Source of the DNA: Gammaproteobacteria bacterium
GTDB taxonomy: Bacteria; Pseudomonadota; Gammaproteobacteria; SZUA-229
Direction of reading: 5' to 3'
Length of the DNA: 64,000 nt
Assembly (NCBI GenBank): GCA_029881275.1
Contig: JAOUMX010000002.1
Span: forward strand, 1,484 to 65,483
In this document: positions 1,731-9,833 of the stretch, in pieces
How the letters are laid out: each line of letters begins with the position of its first letter
Position numbering within the stretch: the first letter of the stretch is position 1
The notes under the pieces: generated by a model
What the model was told of the DNA's origin: nothing
Seen by the model: the letters and a program-made list of their open reading frames with translations, nothing else
Database searches by the model: none
Position numbers and translations under genes: made by a program

Positions 1731-1859
1731 ATGCCTTAAATAAACAGTCCAGACCCTGCTCCAGACTTTTCCTACAAACATCTAAATAATTCACTGACTT
1801 AAATAACTGAACTTTACTGATATTCGTAATAACCAAACTCAATCATACTTACTTTCAAT

Positions 1860-1965
1860 GATACAGGATGTATCATTTTTGCAAGACTCCTTGCACCTAA
1901 TGGATTAGTTACTGGTACGCCAAGGATGGCATCAACCCCGGCACGGATGCCGGGGTTTGTTTTTC
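1860..1965 (+). ncRNA. second short terminator-capped element, a possible small Rsm-type paralog or a ttcA leader
   Basis: The hairpin TGATACA-GGA-TGTATCA has a GGA loop, and ccaAGGAtGG follows. The terminator CCCCGGCACGGATGCCGGGG plus a T-run also has GGA in its loop. No ORF is present. Confidence 0.25.
1936..1965 (+). terminator. rho-independent terminator
   Basis: CCCCGGCA-CGGA-TGCCGGGG followed by TTTGTTTTT. Confidence 0.7.
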
Positions 1966-2019
1966 AGGGCATTTAAATTCACTAGGATTTTTTGCTCTAT
2001 CCATGTATCTTTCAGCCCA

Positions 2020-2766
2020 ATGTCATTTATCAAACCACCAAAAACATTACTCCGCCAGGTTGGCAAGGCGATCATCGATTTTAATATGATCAATGATGGT
2101 GATCGGGTACTGCTTGGCCTTTCAGGCGGCAAGGATTCACTGTCTCTGTTACACATACTGCATCACTTCCAGAAGCATGCTCCAATTCATTTTGATCTTG
2201 CTGCCATGACTGTCGATCCCATGGCCGGTGATTTTGACCCATCACCTATGATCCCTTATCTGGAATCGCTGGGTATAGAATATCACTATCGAAAAGAACC
2301 CATCATGGACATGGCAAAAAAACACATGGGTAAACCATCTTATTGTGCATTCTGCTCACGTATTAAACGCGGCATCATGTACAGCACCGCCAGGGAACAT
2401 AATTTCAATATCATTGCACTCGCCCAGCACCTTGATGACCTGGCAGAAAGTTTTTTAATGTCTGCTTTTCATGGTGGCAAATTAAAAACCATGAAAGCTC
2501 ATTATATTAACGATGATGGCGACTTAAGAATCATACGACCACTGGTCTATGCACGCGAACGCCAGACACGCGAGTTTGCAAAAAACAGCGCATTACCTAT
2601 CATTCCTGATTCCTGCCCTGCCTGTTTTTCCATGCCAACACAACGCCAGCACATGAAAGAACTGCTTGCCCGTGAAGAAAATTTGAATCGTACACTATTT
2701 AAATCATTACTCACCACACTCAAGCCCCTGATGAGCGAAGGAAAACCTGAGCAAACTGTTTCCTGA
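2020..2766 (+). CDS. ttcA: tRNA 2-thiocytidine(32) synthetase, PP-loop ATPase
   Basis: Carries the SGGKDS PP-loop, the AIIDFNMI N-terminus and CxxC motifs. The ATG at 2020 is preferred over the TTG at 1957, which sits inside the terminator. Confidence 0.85.
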   Translation: MSFIKPPKTLLRQVGKAIIDFNMINDGDRVLLGLSGGKDSLSLLHILHHFQKHAPIHFDLAAMTVDPMAGDFDPSPMIPYLESLGIEYHYRKEPIMDMAKKHMGKPSYCAFCSRIKRGIMYSTAREHNFNIIALAQHLDDLAESFLMSAFHGGKLKTMKAHYINDDGDLRIIRPLVYARERQTREFAKNSALPIIPDSCPACFSMPTQRQHMKELLAREENLNRTLFKSLLTTLKPLMSEGKPEQTVS

Positions 2767-2781
2767 TATCATTTAACACAA

Positions 2782-3303
2782 ATGACAAGACTCTTTGAAC
2801 AATGGCCCTGGCACCCTCTATTTTTAAAACTTTATATCTTTGCGCCCATTACATTAAGCCTGCTGCTGACTGGATTCATTTACCCTTACTATCATTATTA
2901 TTCTTTTATCACCCTGATCATTATTCCAGTCGGAATATTCATTCATCACTTACAATCGACAATTGCAGAAAAAATAAAAACGCTTTTAGGCTGCATTTCC
3001 GCTCAAAATGGTCAAGCAGTTGAAGCATTGTTAATTATTGATAATAAACAATCGCCGGGCATTGTTATTCTACGTGATACCATGATTATCCTTATTCCTA
3101 TTGATGGGCGTCGCAAAAAACTGTTATTCACCGACATTAAAAATGTAACCACAACATATAATCTAGCCAATACGCTTCTTTTCTCAAAAACCGTGTTTAT
3201 GCTGGAGACTCAAAAATCTAGCCAATATATTTTTGCCGTTTCCAGATCGACAGGCACACAATGGTCTGAAAAGCTCATCAATGATGCAAGAAAACCTGCT
3301 TAA
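2782..3303 (+). CDS. hypothetical membrane protein (two TM helices plus a soluble domain)
   Basis: 173-aa ORF with a hydrophobic N-terminal half. I recognise no family. Confidence 0.45.
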   Translation: MTRLFEQWPWHPLFLKLYIFAPITLSLLLTGFIYPYYHYYSFITLIIIPVGIFIHHLQSTIAEKIKTLLGCISAQNGQAVEALLIIDNKQSPGIVILRDTMIILIPIDGRRKKLLFTDIKNVTTTYNLANTLLFSKTVFMLETQKSSQYIFAVSRSTGTQWSEKLINDARKPA

Positions 3304-4420
3304 AGTACCTCAAGGCGATTTTTTATTACACCGTCTACCACAAAGACGACGCGAATTATTACGCGCATGGGATGCCGCAGATGAATTAATACTCGATCAT
3401 ATCGCTAATGAAATTATACTTCCCCGGCATTCAAAGATATTAATAGTCAATGACAATTTTGGCGCACTCACAACAGCGCTTAATCATTTTAACCCGGTTA
3501 GCTGGTCAGATTCTTACCTTAGCCACCAGGCAACACGAAACAATCTACAGACAAATAACCTCACATTAGAAAATATTTCATTTCTAACCAGCCTTGAAAC
3601 ACCACCAGATCATTATGATTTAATTCTAATAAAAATACCCAAGACACTGGCATTACTGGAAGATCAGCTAATCAAACTACAACCCGGCATTAGCTCAGAA
3701 ACAAAAATAATCGCAGGCGGCATGATAAAGGGACTAACCCCTAATATCTGGACATTATTTGAACGCATTATCGGCCCTACCACTACTTCGCTAGCCAGAA
3801 AAAAAGCTCGCCTGATTTTTATAACACCCGATAATCAAATTGACCGTATTAATAACCCATACCCGGTTAAATACATTCTGGAAAACACTGAATATGAAAT
3901 CACCAATCATGCCAATGTATTTTCTCGGGATAGCCTGGATATTGGCACCCGTTTTTTCCTACAACATCTCCCACAGGAGCCAATAACCGGTAATATCATT
4001 GATCTAGGCTGCGGCAATGGCATTCTTGGCATCATGGCCCAGAAACTACACCCTGCAGCCAGTCTTCATTTTATTGATGAATCATATATGGCAATAGCGT
4101 CTGCAAAAGAGAACTACCGACTGGTTCACGGCTCCGCTCATACTGCATATTTTCATATTGGCGATGGTCTGGCTCAGTTTAAAGAAAAATCAGCTCATCT
4201 TATTTTATGCAACCCGCCATTCCACCAACATAATGCCATTAGCGACCACATCGCCACCGATATGTTTAAACAATCAAAAAGGGTTCTTTGTAAAGATGGT
4301 GAGCTATGGGTAATAGGCAACAGACACTTGAAATACCACCTGAACCTGAAAAAAATATTTTCTAATTACAGCGTTGTGGCCACAAACTCCAAATTCATCA
4401 TATATCGATCACTCATTTGA
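3281..4420 (+). CDS. rlmG: 23S rRNA (guanine-N2)-methyltransferase, RlmG/RsmC family
   Basis: The N-terminus LRAWDAADE aligns with RlmG, and the SAM motif GCGNG and catalytic NPPFH are present. The start is taken at the internal MMQEN. Confidence 0.7.
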   Translation: MMQENLLKVPQGDFLLHRLPQRRRELLRAWDAADELILDHIANEIILPRHSKILIVNDNFGALTTALNHFNPVSWSDSYLSHQATRNNLQTNNLTLENISFLTSLETPPDHYDLILIKIPKTLALLEDQLIKLQPGISSETKIIAGGMIKGLTPNIWTLFERIIGPTTTSLARKKARLIFITPDNQIDRINNPYPVKYILENTEYEITNHANVFSRDSLDIGTRFFLQHLPQEPITGNIIDLGCGNGILGIMAQKLHPAASLHFIDESYMAIASAKENYRLVHGSAHTAYFHIGDGLAQFKEKSAHLILCNPPFHQHNAISDHIATDMFKQSKRVLCKDGELWVIGNRHLKYHLNLKKIFSNYSVVATNSKFIIYRSLI

Positions 4421-4499
4421 GTGATTTACTTGTTTTAGTCTAAAACTATATTAAATTTGATACTATTATTTGCTAATAGCCTAAAAAACACATAACGAT

Positions 4500-5561
4500 A
4501 TGCCCTCGAACCATATAACCAGATTTCTTTTATTCTCAAGCATTTTATGTCAGAGCGCTTCTCTTTATGCTGAAGTTCAAATATCTGGATTTGCCTCTTT
4601 TATTGCAGGCAAGGTTATTAACGGTAGCGAATTTCTTGCTGATTACCCCAAGACTGGCATTTACGATAAAGACCTGTCTTTTTCACCCGACACATCAATT
4701 GGTGTACAACTCACATCCGATATAACAGAAGACTTCAGCCTTACCTTACAACTGGTCAATAATGGCGCAGATGAATATCAGACAAAATCAACCTGGGCAT
4801 ATCTGAATTATCAATATTCACCTCAAATTTCAATTCAGGCAGGTCGCAAACGACTGCCTCTATATTATTACTCTGATACATTTGACCTGGGCTACGCATA
4901 TCACTGGATCAGACCACCGGCAGACAATTACACCTGGCAAATCGCACATTACAATGGTATCAGTATTATTTTTGAACCTCGCACAACCTCTGTGGACTCA
5001 CTTTTTAATCTTTATTTTGGCAGAGAAGATTCCAGTAACAATGAATTACTGGGCATGTTTGCCGGAGCTCCGGTAAATGAGACATGGAAAAATATTGCAG
5101 GCTTTGTTGGTGAGTTTTCAAAAGACTGGTTTGAAATCAGATTAACCTATATGCGCAGCCTGCTGGACAGAGAAATTAATAACACCCAGACAGACCATAA
5201 CGTAAGGCAACACTTTCAGGGTGTCTCTATTAATCTTTACTATGACCATCTTTCATTTTTATCTGAATTTAATGCCTATGAACGACCACAAGCCGATATT
5301 AGAGTCGTTACCAACATGCAATCTATCGGTTACACTCTAAAAAGAATTACTCCCCACATTACAAGATCAGAACTTAAACAATCACAGAATAGCAACGGAG
5401 GTGATGAACACCACTCTACCAATAGTTTTGGTATACGCTGGGATTACAGAGACAACATTGCCATCAAAATTCAATATGATAAAACAATAGATAAGGGGAT
5501 AAACATCCCCATTCGCGGAAACTCAGAATTAATCTCTTTTGGTGCTGATATAATCTTCTAG
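4500..5561 (+). CDS. putative outer-membrane beta-barrel protein
   Basis: Has a signal peptide, alternating amphipathic strands and a C-terminal aromatic residue (...ADIIF). It is the first gene of an apparent three-gene operon. Confidence 0.5.
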   Translation: MPSNHITRFLLFSSILCQSASLYAEVQISGFASFIAGKVINGSEFLADYPKTGIYDKDLSFSPDTSIGVQLTSDITEDFSLTLQLVNNGADEYQTKSTWAYLNYQYSPQISIQAGRKRLPLYYYSDTFDLGYAYHWIRPPADNYTWQIAHYNGISIIFEPRTTSVDSLFNLYFGREDSSNNELLGMFAGAPVNETWKNIAGFVGEFSKDWFEIRLTYMRSLLDREINNTQTDHNVRQHFQGVSINLYYDHLSFLSEFNAYERPQADIRVVTNMQSIGYTLKRITPHITRSELKQSQNSNGGDEHHSTNSFGIRWDYRDNIAIKIQYDKTIDKGINIPIRGNSELISFGADIIF

Positions 5562-5570
5562 GCTGTCGCA

Positions 5571-6056
5571 ATGAAAAATAGACTCAAGCATCTCATAGAT
5601 CATATCAGTAATTTCAAAACAAGATGGCCACACCTGTCTATCTGGCTACTTCTATTATCTATGCTACCTATTAATAGTTACGCAGAAGATGATCATGTTT
5701 TTTTAATAACAGGATCCAGGTCTAATATATCATCCATATCAAAACACGATCTAAGAAGAATTTATCTTGGTGGAACAGCCATAAACATTCCGGAACCAAC
5801 CAACCCTATTATAAACAAGATAGATATTTCGACCTACAGGCTATTTTTAAAGAACATCATGCACATGACTGAAAACGGTTACAAAAGAAAAGTAGTCAAG
5901 CGCGTATTCAGGCAGGGAAGCGATAAAATTATTGAAATAAAGAACTTAAACGAACTCGACAACCACTTTAAAGAGCATCCTAATGACATCTGTTTTATTT
6001 CTTCAAAGCACAGTTCTCAGATGTTAAATATTAAAATCATAAAAACCCTATGGTAA
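5571..6056 (+). CDS. hypothetical periplasmic protein, a possible partner or regulator of the downstream GGDEF-EAL protein
   Basis: Has a signal peptide, is 161 aa, and its stop overlaps the next gene's start. It is loosely reminiscent of small periplasmic partners of diguanylate cyclases such as YfiR. Confidence 0.45.
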   Translation: MKNRLKHLIDHISNFKTRWPHLSIWLLLLSMLPINSYAEDDHVFLITGSRSNISSISKHDLRRIYLGGTAINIPEPTNPIINKIDISTYRLFLKNIMHMTENGYKRKVVKRVFRQGSDKIIEIKNLNELDNHFKEHPNDICFISSKHSSQMLNIKIIKTLW

Positions 6057-8071
6057 ACAGACTCATAAAACTGCTCAAGTTAAGTACCAGCAGATACATT
6101 CTGACAAGCATTGTCCTTGTTCATATCATTCTTCTGCCGTTCTTATATACAACCATGATGTACGCATACAAAAACAACACCTATGAACAGTTCGAAACTC
6201 AGACACGAGACATCGCCGGCCTTCTAACCGATGTCCTATCGACAAAATACCTGCTTGATGATTTTAAAAGCATATCGGAAACACTGGATTCAGCCATACT
6301 CAGCGGCATCATCAGTTACATTGATATCATTGGTCGTGAAGATTTTATTATTACGCCAACGATCACAACCAGTCTCACAGAAAATGATTTCAACGAGAAC
6401 AGTCAGGTCAGCAACTTTCGGGAATCCATTTTCTTTATTAAAATCCCCTTCTATTTTAAGCAGCCCGATAATATTGCCTACCATCTGAGAATCGGCTTTG
6501 ACAAATCACACCTGAACGATCAATTTATACTAGCCAGAAACTCAATTATACTAATTTTGTCTGCCTATTTTCTGATTATCATAACCATCATTGCCATCAA
6601 CACCCGATACATCTCCACCCCTTTAAGACACTTACGCAAATATTCGAACGAAATTGCCAGTGGTAATACAGATATTGAACTACAGACGCATTCGCAACTA
6701 ACCGATGTTCGCGATTTAACTTTTGACCTTGAAAAAATGCGGCTAGCTCTGGTCAACCTTGCTTTACGAATGCAACATAAAGCAACTCATGATGACCTGA
6801 CAGGACTCCCCAATCGATTCTTATTCACTGACAGACTACAGAGCACTGTTACATTATCCGCCCGAAATCAGCAATCATTTGCCATTTTACTGATTGACCT
6901 TGACCGTTTCAAAGAAATAAATGATACCCTTGGCCATAATATTGGCGACGAAGTTCTTAAAGTTCTCTCTGAAAGGATGTGCCATGGCATTCGAGAATCT
7001 GACACCTTAGCCCGCATTGGCGGTGATGAATTTGCTGTCATCCTGATTGACGTCGGACTTATTGTTGCTGAAAAAATCGCCCGCAAAATCATACAGCTTA
7101 TTGAGCCCTCTTTTTATATAAATGGTCATTCACTAAAACTTGGCGCAAGCATTGGTATTTCTATTTTCCCGGAGGATGGCAGCAATCCAGGAACACTAAT
7201 GCAAAAAGCAGATATATCCATGTATCATGCAAAAAATAACAATTTAAACATCACATCTTATCACCCAGACCTTGACTCAGATCATTATGAGAACCTCGTG
7301 CTTTCTCATAATTTGAAATCGAGCATTGATAACGGCGAATTCGAAGCCCGATTCCAGCCTAAAGTTAACATTAAAAACAAACGCCTTTCTGGTTGCGAAT
7401 TACTTCTGAGGTGGGAACACCCGGACATGGGCACAATTCTGCCTGACAAGTTTATTCCGCTCGCAGAAAAAGAAAATATGATTGGCGAATTGACACGCTG
7501 GACAATAAAACATCATGCCACACAATTTAAAAAATTAATTTCCATATACCCTGACTTTAAAATCTCCATCAACATTTCGCCCAATGACCTTCTTGATTTT
7601 TCATTATTAAATTTTATAAATGAAATTATTACCAGTGACAATCTTCCCGCATCAAATCTCTACATCGAAGTCACCGAAAATGCAATCATGAAAAATCCGG
7701 TCAGATCCGCAGAAATCCTCAACCGATTCTGTGATCTTGGCATTAAAATATCGGTTGACGACTTTGGTACAGGCTATTCTTCACTTGCCTATCTGCAAAA
7801 ATTCCCAATTTCTGAACTAAAAATTGATAAGTCATTTATTAGCAATCTCACAAAAGACTCAAACAACTACCCTATTGTTAGCGCCACCATTACTATGGCG
7901 CATGATCTTGGCATCAGTGTTGTAGCAGAAGGCGTAGAACAGGAAAGCACTCTAAAATTGTTGCGCAACCTGGATTGTGACTATGCGCAAGGCTATTATT
8001 ATGGACAGCCCCGGCACTTTGACGAGATCTTTATGTGGATTGAAAATTACAATAAAAACAAGGCTAACTAA
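6050..8071 (+). CDS. membrane sensor diguanylate cyclase/phosphodiesterase (2TM-periplasmic-HAMP-GGDEF-EAL)
   Basis: Has two TM segments flanking a periplasmic region of about 130 aa, an RIGGDEF active site with an RESD I-site, and an ELLLRW EAL-type motif with downstream EAL-domain residues. Confidence 0.85.
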   Translation: MVNRLIKLLKLSTSRYILTSIVLVHIILLPFLYTTMMYAYKNNTYEQFETQTRDIAGLLTDVLSTKYLLDDFKSISETLDSAILSGIISYIDIIGREDFIITPTITTSLTENDFNENSQVSNFRESIFFIKIPFYFKQPDNIAYHLRIGFDKSHLNDQFILARNSIILILSAYFLIIITIIAINTRYISTPLRHLRKYSNEIASGNTDIELQTHSQLTDVRDLTFDLEKMRLALVNLALRMQHKATHDDLTGLPNRFLFTDRLQSTVTLSARNQQSFAILLIDLDRFKEINDTLGHNIGDEVLKVLSERMCHGIRESDTLARIGGDEFAVILIDVGLIVAEKIARKIIQLIEPSFYINGHSLKLGASIGISIFPEDGSNPGTLMQKADISMYHAKNNNLNITSYHPDLDSDHYENLVLSHNLKSSIDNGEFEARFQPKVNIKNKRLSGCELLLRWEHPDMGTILPDKFIPLAEKENMIGELTRWTIKHHATQFKKLISIYPDFKISINISPNDLLDFSLLNFINEIITSDNLPASNLYIEVTENAIMKNPVRSAEILNRFCDLGIKISVDDFGTGYSSLAYLQKFPISELKIDKSFISNLTKDSNNYPIVSATITMAHDLGISVVAEGVEQESTLKLLRNLDCDYAQGYYYGQPRHFDEIFMWIENYNKNKAN

Positions 8072-8988
8072 CGCATATTAGTGACAACATTACTTTCTTT
8101 TGCGACTTCTACATTTTCAACCATTGAAAAAATAATATTGTCCCTGGCATCAGGCTGATCTTGATCAGCCTGACAGGTAAAAGCGACCGTATATTCGCCC
8201 GGTTCAAGACAGCTCACTATATATTCATAATCACCTGTTTGTATATTTTGCATAACATTCGCAGTCGCGACCAGATTCGTATTACCGACATTCATATCAG
8301 CTGGTGCAGCATCCTTACCTGCAAATACATATACCGCATTGCCGGTATTCGGCAAAGCATCAGAACAGTCTGCTGACATTAATAACAGAGGATCTATAGT
8401 TCCGTGCAATGAAACCATATTGTCAGCATTCACTATTTTCAGAACAGGCAATAAATCATAATCGGCACCAGCTGACTCAACAACTGATCGCCTCAAATCA
8501 AAATCGATTATTAAATTAACATCATTATTGGATGTAATCTCAATATCATTAACAATTTGCAACCCTATCTGCGCACTTGCAGGAATATTTAATTCTTCAT
8601 TCCTGCCATCTGCTAATATAATGTACGAATCCAGGACGCTATCTCTGGTTGCATTAACATGCAGACGAATCCAGTTATATTTGCCGGGAGTTAATTTGAC
8701 ATTTTCAAGCAGAACTTCTGTTTTACCCGCTTGAAGTGAAAGCAGATTAATATCTAAAGGCGTATCAAAAATAATATCGAACGCTGAACCATTAGCTGGC
8801 TTGATAGTCACACCGGAAAACTGTATCCAGACAGCCAATGCGCCATCAACGGGTGCGTCAGTAATTTTGAGCGTCAGCCCACCTTCCATCACACCGCCAC
8901 GACCTGCGCTTGTACTACTACTGCTACCACAGCTACTCAACGCCAGCATCAAAAAAGACAATATGAGAAATTGAATTCCTGTTTTCAT
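8068..8988 (-). CDS. lipoprotein, DUF4382-like
   Basis: Lipobox LALSSC. The sequence is repetitive and beta-rich. Confidence 0.55.
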   Translation of the reverse strand: MKTGIQFLILSFLMLALSSCGSSSSTSAGRGGVMEGGLTLKITDAPVDGALAVWIQFSGVTIKPANGSAFDIIFDTPLDINLLSLQAGKTEVLLENVKLTPGKYNWIRLHVNATRDSVLDSYIILADGRNEELNIPASAQIGLQIVNDIEITSNNDVNLIIDFDLRRSVVESAGADYDLLPVLKIVNADNMVSLHGTIDPLLLMSADCSDALPNTGNAVYVFAGKDAAPADMNVGNTNLVATANVMQNIQTGDYEYIVSCLEPGEYTVAFTCQADQDQPDARDNIIFSMVENVEVAKESNVVTNMR

Positions 8989-9311: not shown

Positions 9312-9833
9312 TTATTCAATGATGACTTTTACTATCATATCCGTCCCTATCTGATAATCCGGCACCTTCAAATTACCCTGCGAATATTTTCCCTTATAGA
9401 CTCGACCTGCAAGATTATATTCAACATCCACACACACAGACTTAAAAGTATCATCGCTATACTTAATTTCACATCGATAAAACGGATCTATTGCATAGGC
9501 AACAAACAGATCTTTTCTCCTAGAACGGAAAACAGGATGCATATCTTCAGCCAAATTCTGCTCTGCATCATAAGCATATAAATTCCTGTCCTGAGCGTTA
9601 ACTAAATCATTTATCATCGCATCCGTTCGTTTCAGGACCAGCAGGTTTCCTGATGAAGTCGAAAAATACTTTATGTCTCCAGATTTTAATTCAGCTATAT
9701 CAATAACCACGAAAGCCGATTCACTTTTTCCGTCGTCAACCAAGCCGGCCATAAATACATATATAACGAACCCCAGGCCAAAGATAAACATTAATTTTAC
9801 TGTCACTCTCAGCACTATTTTATTATTCACCAT
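9312..9833 (-). CDS. hypothetical membrane-anchored protein
   Basis: 173 aa with an N-terminal TM helix. I recognise no family. Confidence 0.4.
   Translation of the reverse strand: MVNNKIVLRVTVKLMFIFGLGFVIYVFMAGLVDDGKSESAFVVIDIAELKSGDIKYFSTSSGNLLVLKRTDAMINDLVNAQDRNLYAYDAEQNLAEDMHPVFRSRRKDLFVAYAIDPFYRCEIKYSDDTFKSVCVDVEYNLAGRVYKGKYSQGNLKVPDYQIGTDMIVKVIIE

Follow-up and report, generated by a model that had tools for sequence, protein, structure and literature searches.

A porin, a small periplasmic protein and a membrane sensor form a conserved gene cassette with interchangeable outputs in uncultured Gammaproteobacteria

The window analyzed here, a 64,000-nucleotide stretch of contig JAOUMX010000002.1 from a Gammaproteobacteria bacterium (assembly GCA_029881275.1, positions 1,484 to 65,483), contains three adjacent genes on the forward strand that encode a 353-residue outer-membrane protein (OMP; 4500–5561), a 161-residue periplasmic protein (5571–6056) and a 673-residue inner-membrane sensor enzyme (6050–8071). 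An original prediction, made from the sequence alone, had described this trio as an envelope-spanning module for cyclic di-GMP (c-di-GMP) signaling, and our list of open reading frames agrees with the positions and strand that it gave for all three genes. We find that the trio is a real, co-conserved unit. Related loci were annotated with hidden Markov models for every part and de-duplicated, yielding 67 distinct small proteins from genomes and metagenomes in unrelated flanks. An OMP-type gene lies directly upstream of the small-protein gene and on the same strand in 50 of the 52 loci with room for it (21 of the window's type, here called type A, and 29 of a second type, type B), and the N-terminal module of the sensor lies directly downstream in 53 of 54 testable loci. 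That the three genes might not travel together in relatives had been raised along with the original prediction; the comparison found them co-conserved.

A conserved front end with interchangeable outputs

Six context look-ups, seeded with the small protein or the porin, each returned a porin, a small protein, a GGDEF-EAL protein and a convergent gene for a DUF4382 lipoprotein, in flanks that differed. The gene 5′ of the porin varied among the relatives looked up, and no transporter gene was conserved beside the cassette in any of the six. Scanning a single genome of each species brought in 14 further loci with the same gene order, all from uncultured Gammaproteobacteria, and a metagenome scan contributed 46 additional loci. 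Within the window the genes are tightly packed: 9 nucleotides separate the porin stop codon from the small-protein start codon, and the small-protein and sensor genes are translationally coupled, with a 7-nucleotide overlap (ATGGTAA) between the stop of the former and the start of the latter.

What follows the sensor module differs among relatives. It consists of GGDEF and EAL domains in 22 loci, a histidine kinase in 11 and a GGDEF domain only in 6, with no output domain detected in 1. The specific label 'c-di-GMP module' therefore did not survive the comparison, because the same front end joins histidine kinases or GGDEF-only proteins in many relatives; with outputs that can be swapped behind the porin, small protein and sensor domain, c-di-GMP is just one output of a more general front end. 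Distant small proteins, with 17–25% identity to that of the window, sit between an unannotated secreted protein of ~360–380 residues and a membrane HAMP protein that has GGDEF, PAS-GGDEF or a histidine kinase as its output, the kinase being followed by a response regulator.

In the window's own subfamily the conserved unit has four genes rather than three, the fourth having escaped the original prediction. A convergent gene on the reverse strand (8068–8988) encodes a 306-residue DUF4382 lipoprotein (PF14321, E = 4.5e-28, 98.6 bits against a cut-off of 25) with the lipobox LSSC. The lipobox Cys is followed by …AGRGG in all full-length homologs, and the protein is of the outer-membrane type, with no Asp at position +2. 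A convergent DUF4382 gene is present in all 17 type-A/GGDEF-EAL loci with room for it and in none of the 19 other variants; it is an obligatory accessory of this subfamily. A sequence search against the Protein Data Bank (PDB) returned no relative of the lipoprotein, and the literature that we could search, coverage of which is incomplete, held no description of DUF4382 function. The stop codons of the sensor and DUF4382 genes overlap by 4 nucleotides (8068–8071), which leaves no room for terminators between them. Similarly tight convergence (0–60 nucleotides) is seen in most related loci, with wider spacing in two (L019 and L021).

Properties of the porin, the small protein and the sensor

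The gene at 4500–5561 encodes a protein predicted to be a classical 16-stranded porin. The OMP signature on which the original prediction had relied, a signal peptide and a C-terminal Phe, was borne out (signal peptide at residues 1–24, ending …SLYA/EVQ; C terminus …GADIIF), and an AlphaFold model based on 67 homologs (predicted local distance difference test (pLDDT) of 85.4, predicted template-modeling score of 0.79) forms 16 long antiparallel strands. A Foldseek search of the PDB with this model gave 235 porin matches at E ≤ 1e-3 (best E = 2.7e-11), with OmpT/OmpU, OmpF, Omp32, chitoporin (ChiP) and OprP among the structures matched. Model and sequence together thus give the protein the hallmarks of the classical trimeric porins (OmpF/OmpU/Omp32/OprP; Pfam Porin_4 superfamily), namely a predicted 16-strand barrel, a long loop L3, a signal peptide and a C-terminal aromatic residue, here Phe. 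It differs from them in falling below Pfam thresholds, in having loops that are more conserved than its strands and in its genetic setting: the cassette gene is tied to a signaling operon, whereas theirs stand alone. More than 300 homologs were found, some annotated as porin or Porin_4. PF13609 (Porin_4) is pre-assigned to many homologs at 50–58% identity, some of these assignments being weak; the window porin itself has no Pfam match and does not match PF13609 even at E ≤ 1.

Conservation within the porin is concentrated on one side of the barrel. Across the 67 homologs, mean column identity is 0.89 in L3, 0.81 in L1, 0.77 in the external loops overall, 0.68 in the strands and 0.49 in the periplasmic turns, where the assignment of loops and turns to either side assumes canonical porin topology, with both termini periplasmic. 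L3, the predicted constriction loop (residues 119–149, LPLYYYSDTFDLGYAYHWIRPPADNYTWQIA; 4854–4946, forward strand), is the most conserved part of the protein and is rich in aromatic residues (9 of 31), with a pLDDT of ~63 that is low within the porin model. The periplasmic turns, each of 2–7 residues, are the least conserved part. Because L3 and L1 are the most conserved elements and the short periplasmic turns the least, this pattern fits a specific channel better than a periplasmic sequestering partner or docking platform of the YfiB kind.

The type-B OMPs of the distant variants (L025, L027–L030 and L033–L077) have Pro as their last residue in most cases (…WSAALP, 24 of 32), not the aromatic residue usual in an outer-membrane barrel, and they carry a conserved His-rich motif, GRFHxPxxxWNxxxHHGxYLQTS. 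A HMMER comparison of type-A with type-B OMPs gave no match. One locus (L064:219–2861) combines a small protein and sensor of the distant type with a type-A-like porin (E = 2e-26) instead of a type-B OMP, which implies either that the OMP types are exchangeable or that they grade into each other.

The small periplasmic protein (5571–6056, forward strand) belongs to an unnamed family and is predicted to adopt a single-lobe fold resembling type II binding proteins. Its signal spans residues ~1–39 and ends SYA/EDD, leaving a mature protein of ~122 residues (~14 kDa, isoelectric point (pI) of 9.7); an N-terminal hydrophobic signal is a feature of all its relatives. An exhaustive profile search at E ≤ 1e-3 placed 474 representatives at 50% identity in the family (233 at E ≤ 1e-10), nearly all of them standalone proteins of 140–165 residues, and a word-indexed search returned just 21 clusters, all from metagenome-assembled genomes (MAGs) or metagenomes. 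Conserved motifs include RRxYLG, NxSD, FL[KQ][NK][IV], Y[KE]Rx[LV]xxR[VI]FRxG and a C-terminal LW. Neither the small protein nor 51 diverse members gave a consistent Pfam or NCBIfam match even at E ≤ 10, and a sequence search of the PDB with the small protein found nothing.

Its AlphaFold model has an α/β fold with a pLDDT of 76.7, falling to 57–64 over a basic helix at residues 101–120. The best Foldseek matches are type II periplasmic binding proteins (PBPs), including ModA (4kd5, E = 2.7e-4) and PstS (1twy, query template-modeling score (TMq) of 0.54), and further matches comprise amino-acid binders and the ligand-binding domains of glutamate receptors. These matches have a probability of 1.00, E values of 2.7e-4 to 1e-3 and TMq values of 0.42–0.54, normalized on all 161 residues with the signal peptide included. 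Approximately 125 columns of the model align with targets of 225–260 residues, corresponding to about one lobe, and in the model the small protein resembles about half of a type II PBP of the PstS/ModA kind.

The sensor enzyme (6050–8071, forward strand) has the architecture that the original prediction assigned to it, two transmembrane segments (TM1 and TM2) enclosing a periplasmic domain and followed by HAMP, GGDEF and EAL domains, as supported by Pfam, a HAMP profile and hydrophobic segments. Hydrophobic windows and hhalign delimit its N-terminal module (6098–6607), which comprises TM1 (residues ~17–39), the periplasmic domain (~40–159) and TM2 (~160–186). The periplasmic domain, of ~120 residues, is acidic (pI of 4.6). 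No Pfam, NCBIfam or PDB family matched the module; its fold may be PDC/Cache-like, judging by scattered sub-threshold matches to periplasmic sensor domains of the Cache and CusS types. When aligned with hhalign to the N termini of the kinases and cyclases encoded beside distant small proteins, the window module matched over 168 columns (99.9% probability, E = 1.2e-31), and the motifs LDSxxLSG, FxEDxxxGxHxDxxY and LRLGFDE are common to these modules. Because the module is homologous across output types, we regard the small protein and the sensor domain as a conserved partnership. The periplasmic stretch of the sensor carries a net negative charge in 48 of 48 members, and the small protein a net positive charge in 39 of 48. 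A possible link to the NCBIfam family 'sensor histidine kinase, YfiR-like protein-associated' was set aside: the one weak match behind it (E = 1.3e-3) did not recur, with 1 of 48 members matching, and was taken as chance.

The cytoplasmic part of the enzyme begins with a HAMP domain (residues 185–234; 6602–6751) that scores below the Pfam cut-off (E = 5e-4, 20.8 bits against 25); a profile of 13 orthologs matches HAMP domains in the PDB with E = 7e-7. It is followed by a GGDEF domain (residues 245–398; 6782–7243; PF00990, E = 9.5e-46), in which the motif is intact and preceded, at a distance of five residues, by an RxxD I-site (RESD), and by an EAL domain (residues 421–654; 7310–8011; PF00563, E = 1.1e-71) that has all of its catalytic motifs (ELL, N, EVTE, DDFGTGYSS, KxD, EGVE and QG). 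GGDEF, the I-site and every EAL motif (E[LIFM]L, N, ExxE, DDFGTGYSS, KxD, EG[VI]E and QG) are kept in 20 of 20 orthologs. Given these intact motifs, both the cyclase and the phosphodiesterase activity of the window enzyme are predicted to be functional. The Arg that follows E-L-L (window residues 450–455) is replaced by Gln in 5 of the 20 orthologs (ELLTQW or ELLSQW), with the other catalytic motifs kept. None of the NCBIfam equivalogs compared with the enzyme (DibA, HmsP, PdeK, LapD, CsrD and others) scored above its cut-off; the best was DibA (388 bits against 980), and HmsP and LapD gave 230 against 733 and 125 against 1020, respectively.

Proposed mechanism, related systems and alternative explanations

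We give an even chance to a model in which the cassette senses a solute: a dedicated, specific porin admits the solute, and the small protein and the sensor domain detect it and thereby set the balance between cyclase and phosphodiesterase. The substrate-specific porin would let a small solute into the periplasm, where the small protein would detect it together with the sensor domain, and the HAMP domain would relay the resulting change across the membrane. Partner-bound and partner-free states of the sensor would then tip c-di-GMP turnover toward synthesis or toward breakdown, in line with the proposal made for NspS–MbaA; the ligand and its entry route, the physical interaction and the direction of the switch are what we infer here. 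A shift in c-di-GMP balance is expected because the output in the window is a bifunctional GGDEF-EAL enzyme with an I-site, which would itself provide feedback on the enzyme's switch between synthesis and degradation. The modeled type II PBP-like fold of the small protein would favor ligand sensing, as the known members of this fold class bind solutes. The model also draws on the co-inheritance of the three parts, the homology of the sensor module across outputs, the overlap of the small-protein and sensor genes, the concentration of porin conservation in L3 and L1, and the retained catalytic motifs; co-inheritance and the opposite charges of the two proteins are the indirect evidence for the putative contact between small protein and sensor.

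There are precedents for binding-protein control of such enzymes. NspS–MbaA and ScrB–ScrC are GGDEF-EAL proteins regulated in this way, and LuxP–LuxQ, TorT–TorS, CBP–ChiS and others are their kinase counterparts, all of them with full-size binding proteins of 34–63 kDa (PMC8050422). Binding of NspS has been proposed to suppress the phosphodiesterase activity of MbaA such that the cyclase dominates (PMC8079147). As in NspS–MbaA of Vibrio cholerae and ScrB–ScrC of V. parahaemolyticus, the cassette gene for a partner with a modeled binding-protein-like fold immediately precedes the gene for a GGDEF-EAL membrane protein that has a periplasmic domain. The partners themselves differ: NspS and ScrB are two-lobed proteins of 36–41 kDa in the Pfam families SBP_bac_8 and SBP_bac_3, whereas the cassette partner has ~14 kDa, one predicted lobe and no Pfam family, and none of the 51 members of the small-protein family examined matched a Pfam family of solute-binding proteins or PBPs. 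In addition, no dedicated porin or DUF4382 gene is given for the two Vibrio systems in PMC8050422 or PMC8079147, and their sensor domain is described as dCache-like, whereas that of the cassette forms an unnamed family.

The chitin system of Vibrio offers a parallel for the whole chain, in that a specific outer-membrane channel (chitoporin) leads to a periplasmic binding protein (chitin-binding protein, CBP) and an inner-membrane sensor (ChiS). The histidine-kinase variants of the cassette parallel ChiS, and chitoporin is among the structures matched by the porin model. Chitoporin is, however, encoded apart from the sensor, whereas in the cassette the genes for all three parts sit together in a single compact cluster, beside which no transporter gene is conserved. 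The binding proteins of CBP–ChiS, TorT–TorS and LuxP–LuxQ are, moreover, full-size and usually also feed a transporter. A transmembrane sensor under the control of a periplasmic accessory protein is a known kind of system; what is new in the cassette is its two protein families and the unusual dedicated porin.

Several observations weigh against solute sensing through the porin. A dedicated porin is not normally needed for bacteria to sense solutes in the periplasm, and an OMP gene that is constantly present may therefore have a function beyond ligand entry. The type-B OMPs of the distant variants are only weakly similar to the window porin (hhalign probability of 46%, then 65%), and two loci (L034:4881–7330 and L066:1342–3041) keep the small-protein and sensor pair with no OMP gene upstream. 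Confidence in the small-protein model is moderate (pLDDT of 76.7), and no ligand-binding residues could be identified in the protein. The mature protein of ~122 residues amounts to about one lobe and is therefore incapable of the closure around a ligand seen in two-lobed binding proteins; any ligand would need to be bound between the small protein and either the sensor domain or another copy of itself, and possibly there is none. The complementary charges of the small protein and the sensor are weak evidence for their pairing, as many periplasmic domains are acidic.

A more ambitious formulation, which we advance tentatively as a possibility, is that the cassette defines a widespread class of trans-envelope sensors that had so far escaped recognition. 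Here the porin would be part of the sensing complex and more than a pore for entry, and the single-lobe protein would provide an obligate relay from the outer to the inner membrane, coupled to a new sensor domain with interchangeable outputs; the DUF4382 lipoprotein would be a further partner in the window's subfamily.

The original prediction had likened the trio to YfiBNR (TpbB), in which the outer-membrane lipoprotein YfiB sequesters YfiR, a protein similar to one sub-domain of a type I PBP (PMC4655355). As an analogy of design, with a single-lobe periplasmic protein and an overlapping sensor gene, this comparison stands; as a statement of homology it does not. DUF4154 (PF13689), the YfiR family that had been suggested as a check, was found in 0 of 51 members, with no match for these or the window protein even at E ≤ 10, and hhalign gave a probability of 1.2% for the small protein against Escherichia coli YfiR. 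A periplasmic domain of the YfiN/DgcN type was likewise rejected, as hhalign aligned just the first 13 residues of the GGDEF domain with E. coli DgcN. The sensor enzyme scores 173 against a cut-off of 325 with the NCBIfam DgcN model, and an alignment to this model that reached into the periplasmic region was lost when the N terminus of the sensor was scanned alone. No OmpA/Pal-like domain was found in the cassette cluster.

The likeness to YfiBNR and HmsCDE extends to several levels. In each case a small periplasmic protein that resembles, or for the cassette is modeled to resemble, a single lobe of a binding protein is encoded by a gene that lies directly upstream of a c-di-GMP enzyme gene and overlaps it (by 11 nucleotides for yfiR–dgcN in E. 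coli K-12 and by 7 in the cassette), the enzyme has two transmembrane segments, a periplasmic domain and a HAMP domain, and an outer-membrane component is encoded alongside. The differences in components that the original prediction had pointed out, a large barrel and a dual GGDEF-EAL enzyme, are confirmed: the cassette has a predicted 16-strand porin, with the DUF4382 lipoprotein in addition, where YfiBNR and HmsCDE have an OmpA/Pal-like lipoprotein, and a GGDEF-EAL enzyme where theirs is GGDEF only. The cassette also places its outer-membrane component first in the gene order, and the modeled fold of its small protein is type II-like, whereas that of YfiR is type I-like.

It is against this background that a relay of envelope status similar to YfiBNR has to be judged, and we consider it unlikely, if still a serious alternative. 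The small protein would act as a ligand-independent repressor or activator of the sensor and would be titrated by the DUF4382 lipoprotein or the porin upon envelope perturbation, thereby releasing the enzyme. A single lobe is better suited to binding another protein than to capturing a ligand, YfiR is likewise small, has a form like that of a binding-protein sub-domain and is bound away by an outer-membrane lipoprotein (PMC4655355), and each of the two systems has an overlap between accessory and sensor genes. The lipobox protein DUF4382, which lacks Asp at +2, is a candidate for the titrating partner in 17 of 17 loci of the subfamily, but it is present in 0 of 19 other variants, whereas an OMP gene is nearly always there, and it is encoded on the opposite strand and thus on a separate transcript. 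The porin, for its part, has periplasmic turns of 2–7 residues that are its least conserved segments and offer no obvious conserved docking face, and sequence comparisons related the cassette to none of YfiR, YfiN and YfiB.

Rather less probable, in our judgment, is cell-surface signaling by the porin itself, which would sense an external cue or the occupancy of its channel while the small protein carries the information to the inner-membrane transducer, by a logic similar to that of TonB-dependent transducers and anti-sigma factors. L1 and L3, on the predicted outer face, exceed the strands in conservation, an unusual feature in a porin, and the OMP gene is kept in 50 of 52 loci although no transporter gene is conserved alongside. 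Conservation of L3 is, however, equally well explained by channel specificity, as the classical L3 normally folds into the lumen, and the porin lacks both a plug domain and any extension into the periplasm, its periplasmic turns being very short and poorly conserved. We know of no precedent for a classical porin that signals to a soluble partner.

We also think it improbable that the small protein serves to fold, stabilize or assemble the sensor or the porin and takes no part in perceiving the signal. Tight translational coupling and strict co-inheritance would be just as characteristic of a chaperone or an obligate structural subunit, but a binding-protein-like fold and a dedicated porin are atypical of chaperones, and the partnership is specifically with the periplasmic domain of the sensor, whatever the output. 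Adjacency by chance of an ordinary porin and an orphan reading frame to a GGDEF-EAL gene is effectively refuted by an order, strand and spacing that are kept in 50 of 52 and 53 of 54 loci with different flanks.

The inputs of most membrane-bound c-di-GMP enzymes and sensor kinases are unknown, and the cassette offers a concrete, testable input pathway for orphan sensors of marine and sediment Gammaproteobacteria, including a tubeworm endosymbiont. It also defines two sizeable uncharacterized families, the small protein and the sensor domain, that are inherited with an OMP gene and are candidates for new Pfam entries. The small protein would add to YfiR a second and independent example of a half-size protein with a binding-protein-like fold acting as the periplasmic partner of a HAMP transducer, and the cassette raises the unusual possibility of a porin dedicated to signaling instead of nutrition.

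Carriers, flanking sequences and atypical loci

Every named carrier of the cassette is an uncultured MAG, from unclassified Gammaproteobacteria, a 'Thiotrichaceae' MAG and Steroidobacteraceae MAGs to the endosymbiont of the tubeworm Galathealinum brachiosum, which contributes one locus. A search for a cultured carrier found none, the genome scan at narrower alignment hitting uncultured MAGs alone, and immediate experiments are therefore limited to heterologous systems. The original prediction did not recognize the trio as a described system, and we likewise found no description of it in Pfam, NCBIfam or the searchable literature, although coverage of the literature is incomplete and this is not proof of absence.

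The intergenic region 5′ of the porin gene (4407–4499, forward strand) contains a terminator-like hairpin just past rlmG (4407–4426) and a promoter-like site (4425–4452). These were found by a consensus scan in which site counts were not above shuffled expectation, and the signals are therefore no more than compatible with an independent transcription unit.

Three loci depart from the usual arrangement in other ways. L063 holds two back-to-back cassettes (1836–3235, reverse strand, and 3781–6484, forward strand): a complete type-B cassette is closely preceded, on the other strand, by a gene for a divergent second small protein (E = 2e-9) and a gene similar to the type-A OMPs (E = 4e-7). In L034, the neighbor that abuts the small-protein and sensor pair is a shikimate-dehydrogenase-like gene on the opposite strand. 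L076 has a shortened small-protein gene (82–474; 130 residues) with a divergent C terminus among unrelated genes, which may be a pseudogene remnant or the product of a chimeric assembly; this locus and the two that lack an OMP gene make up the exceptions to the co-conservation counts.

Two further genes near the cassette in the window recur in the relative L004. Upstream, 2782–3303 (forward strand) encodes a hydrophobic 173-residue protein that matches no Pfam or NCBIfam family and is kept in L004 with 64% identity; the 3′ end of its gene overlaps the longest rlmG reading frame, which starts at 3233. Downstream, 9312–9833 (reverse strand) also encodes 173 residues, with an N-terminal membrane anchor and a weak match to the Rieske subunit of cytochrome bc1 (TIGR01416, E = 5.9e-12, 45.9 bits against a cut-off of 97.4). 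This protein lacks the CxH…CxxH cluster ligands and may be a Rieske-fold protein without a cluster; its gene also adjoins the cassette in L004, the closest relative, where the product has 54% identity.

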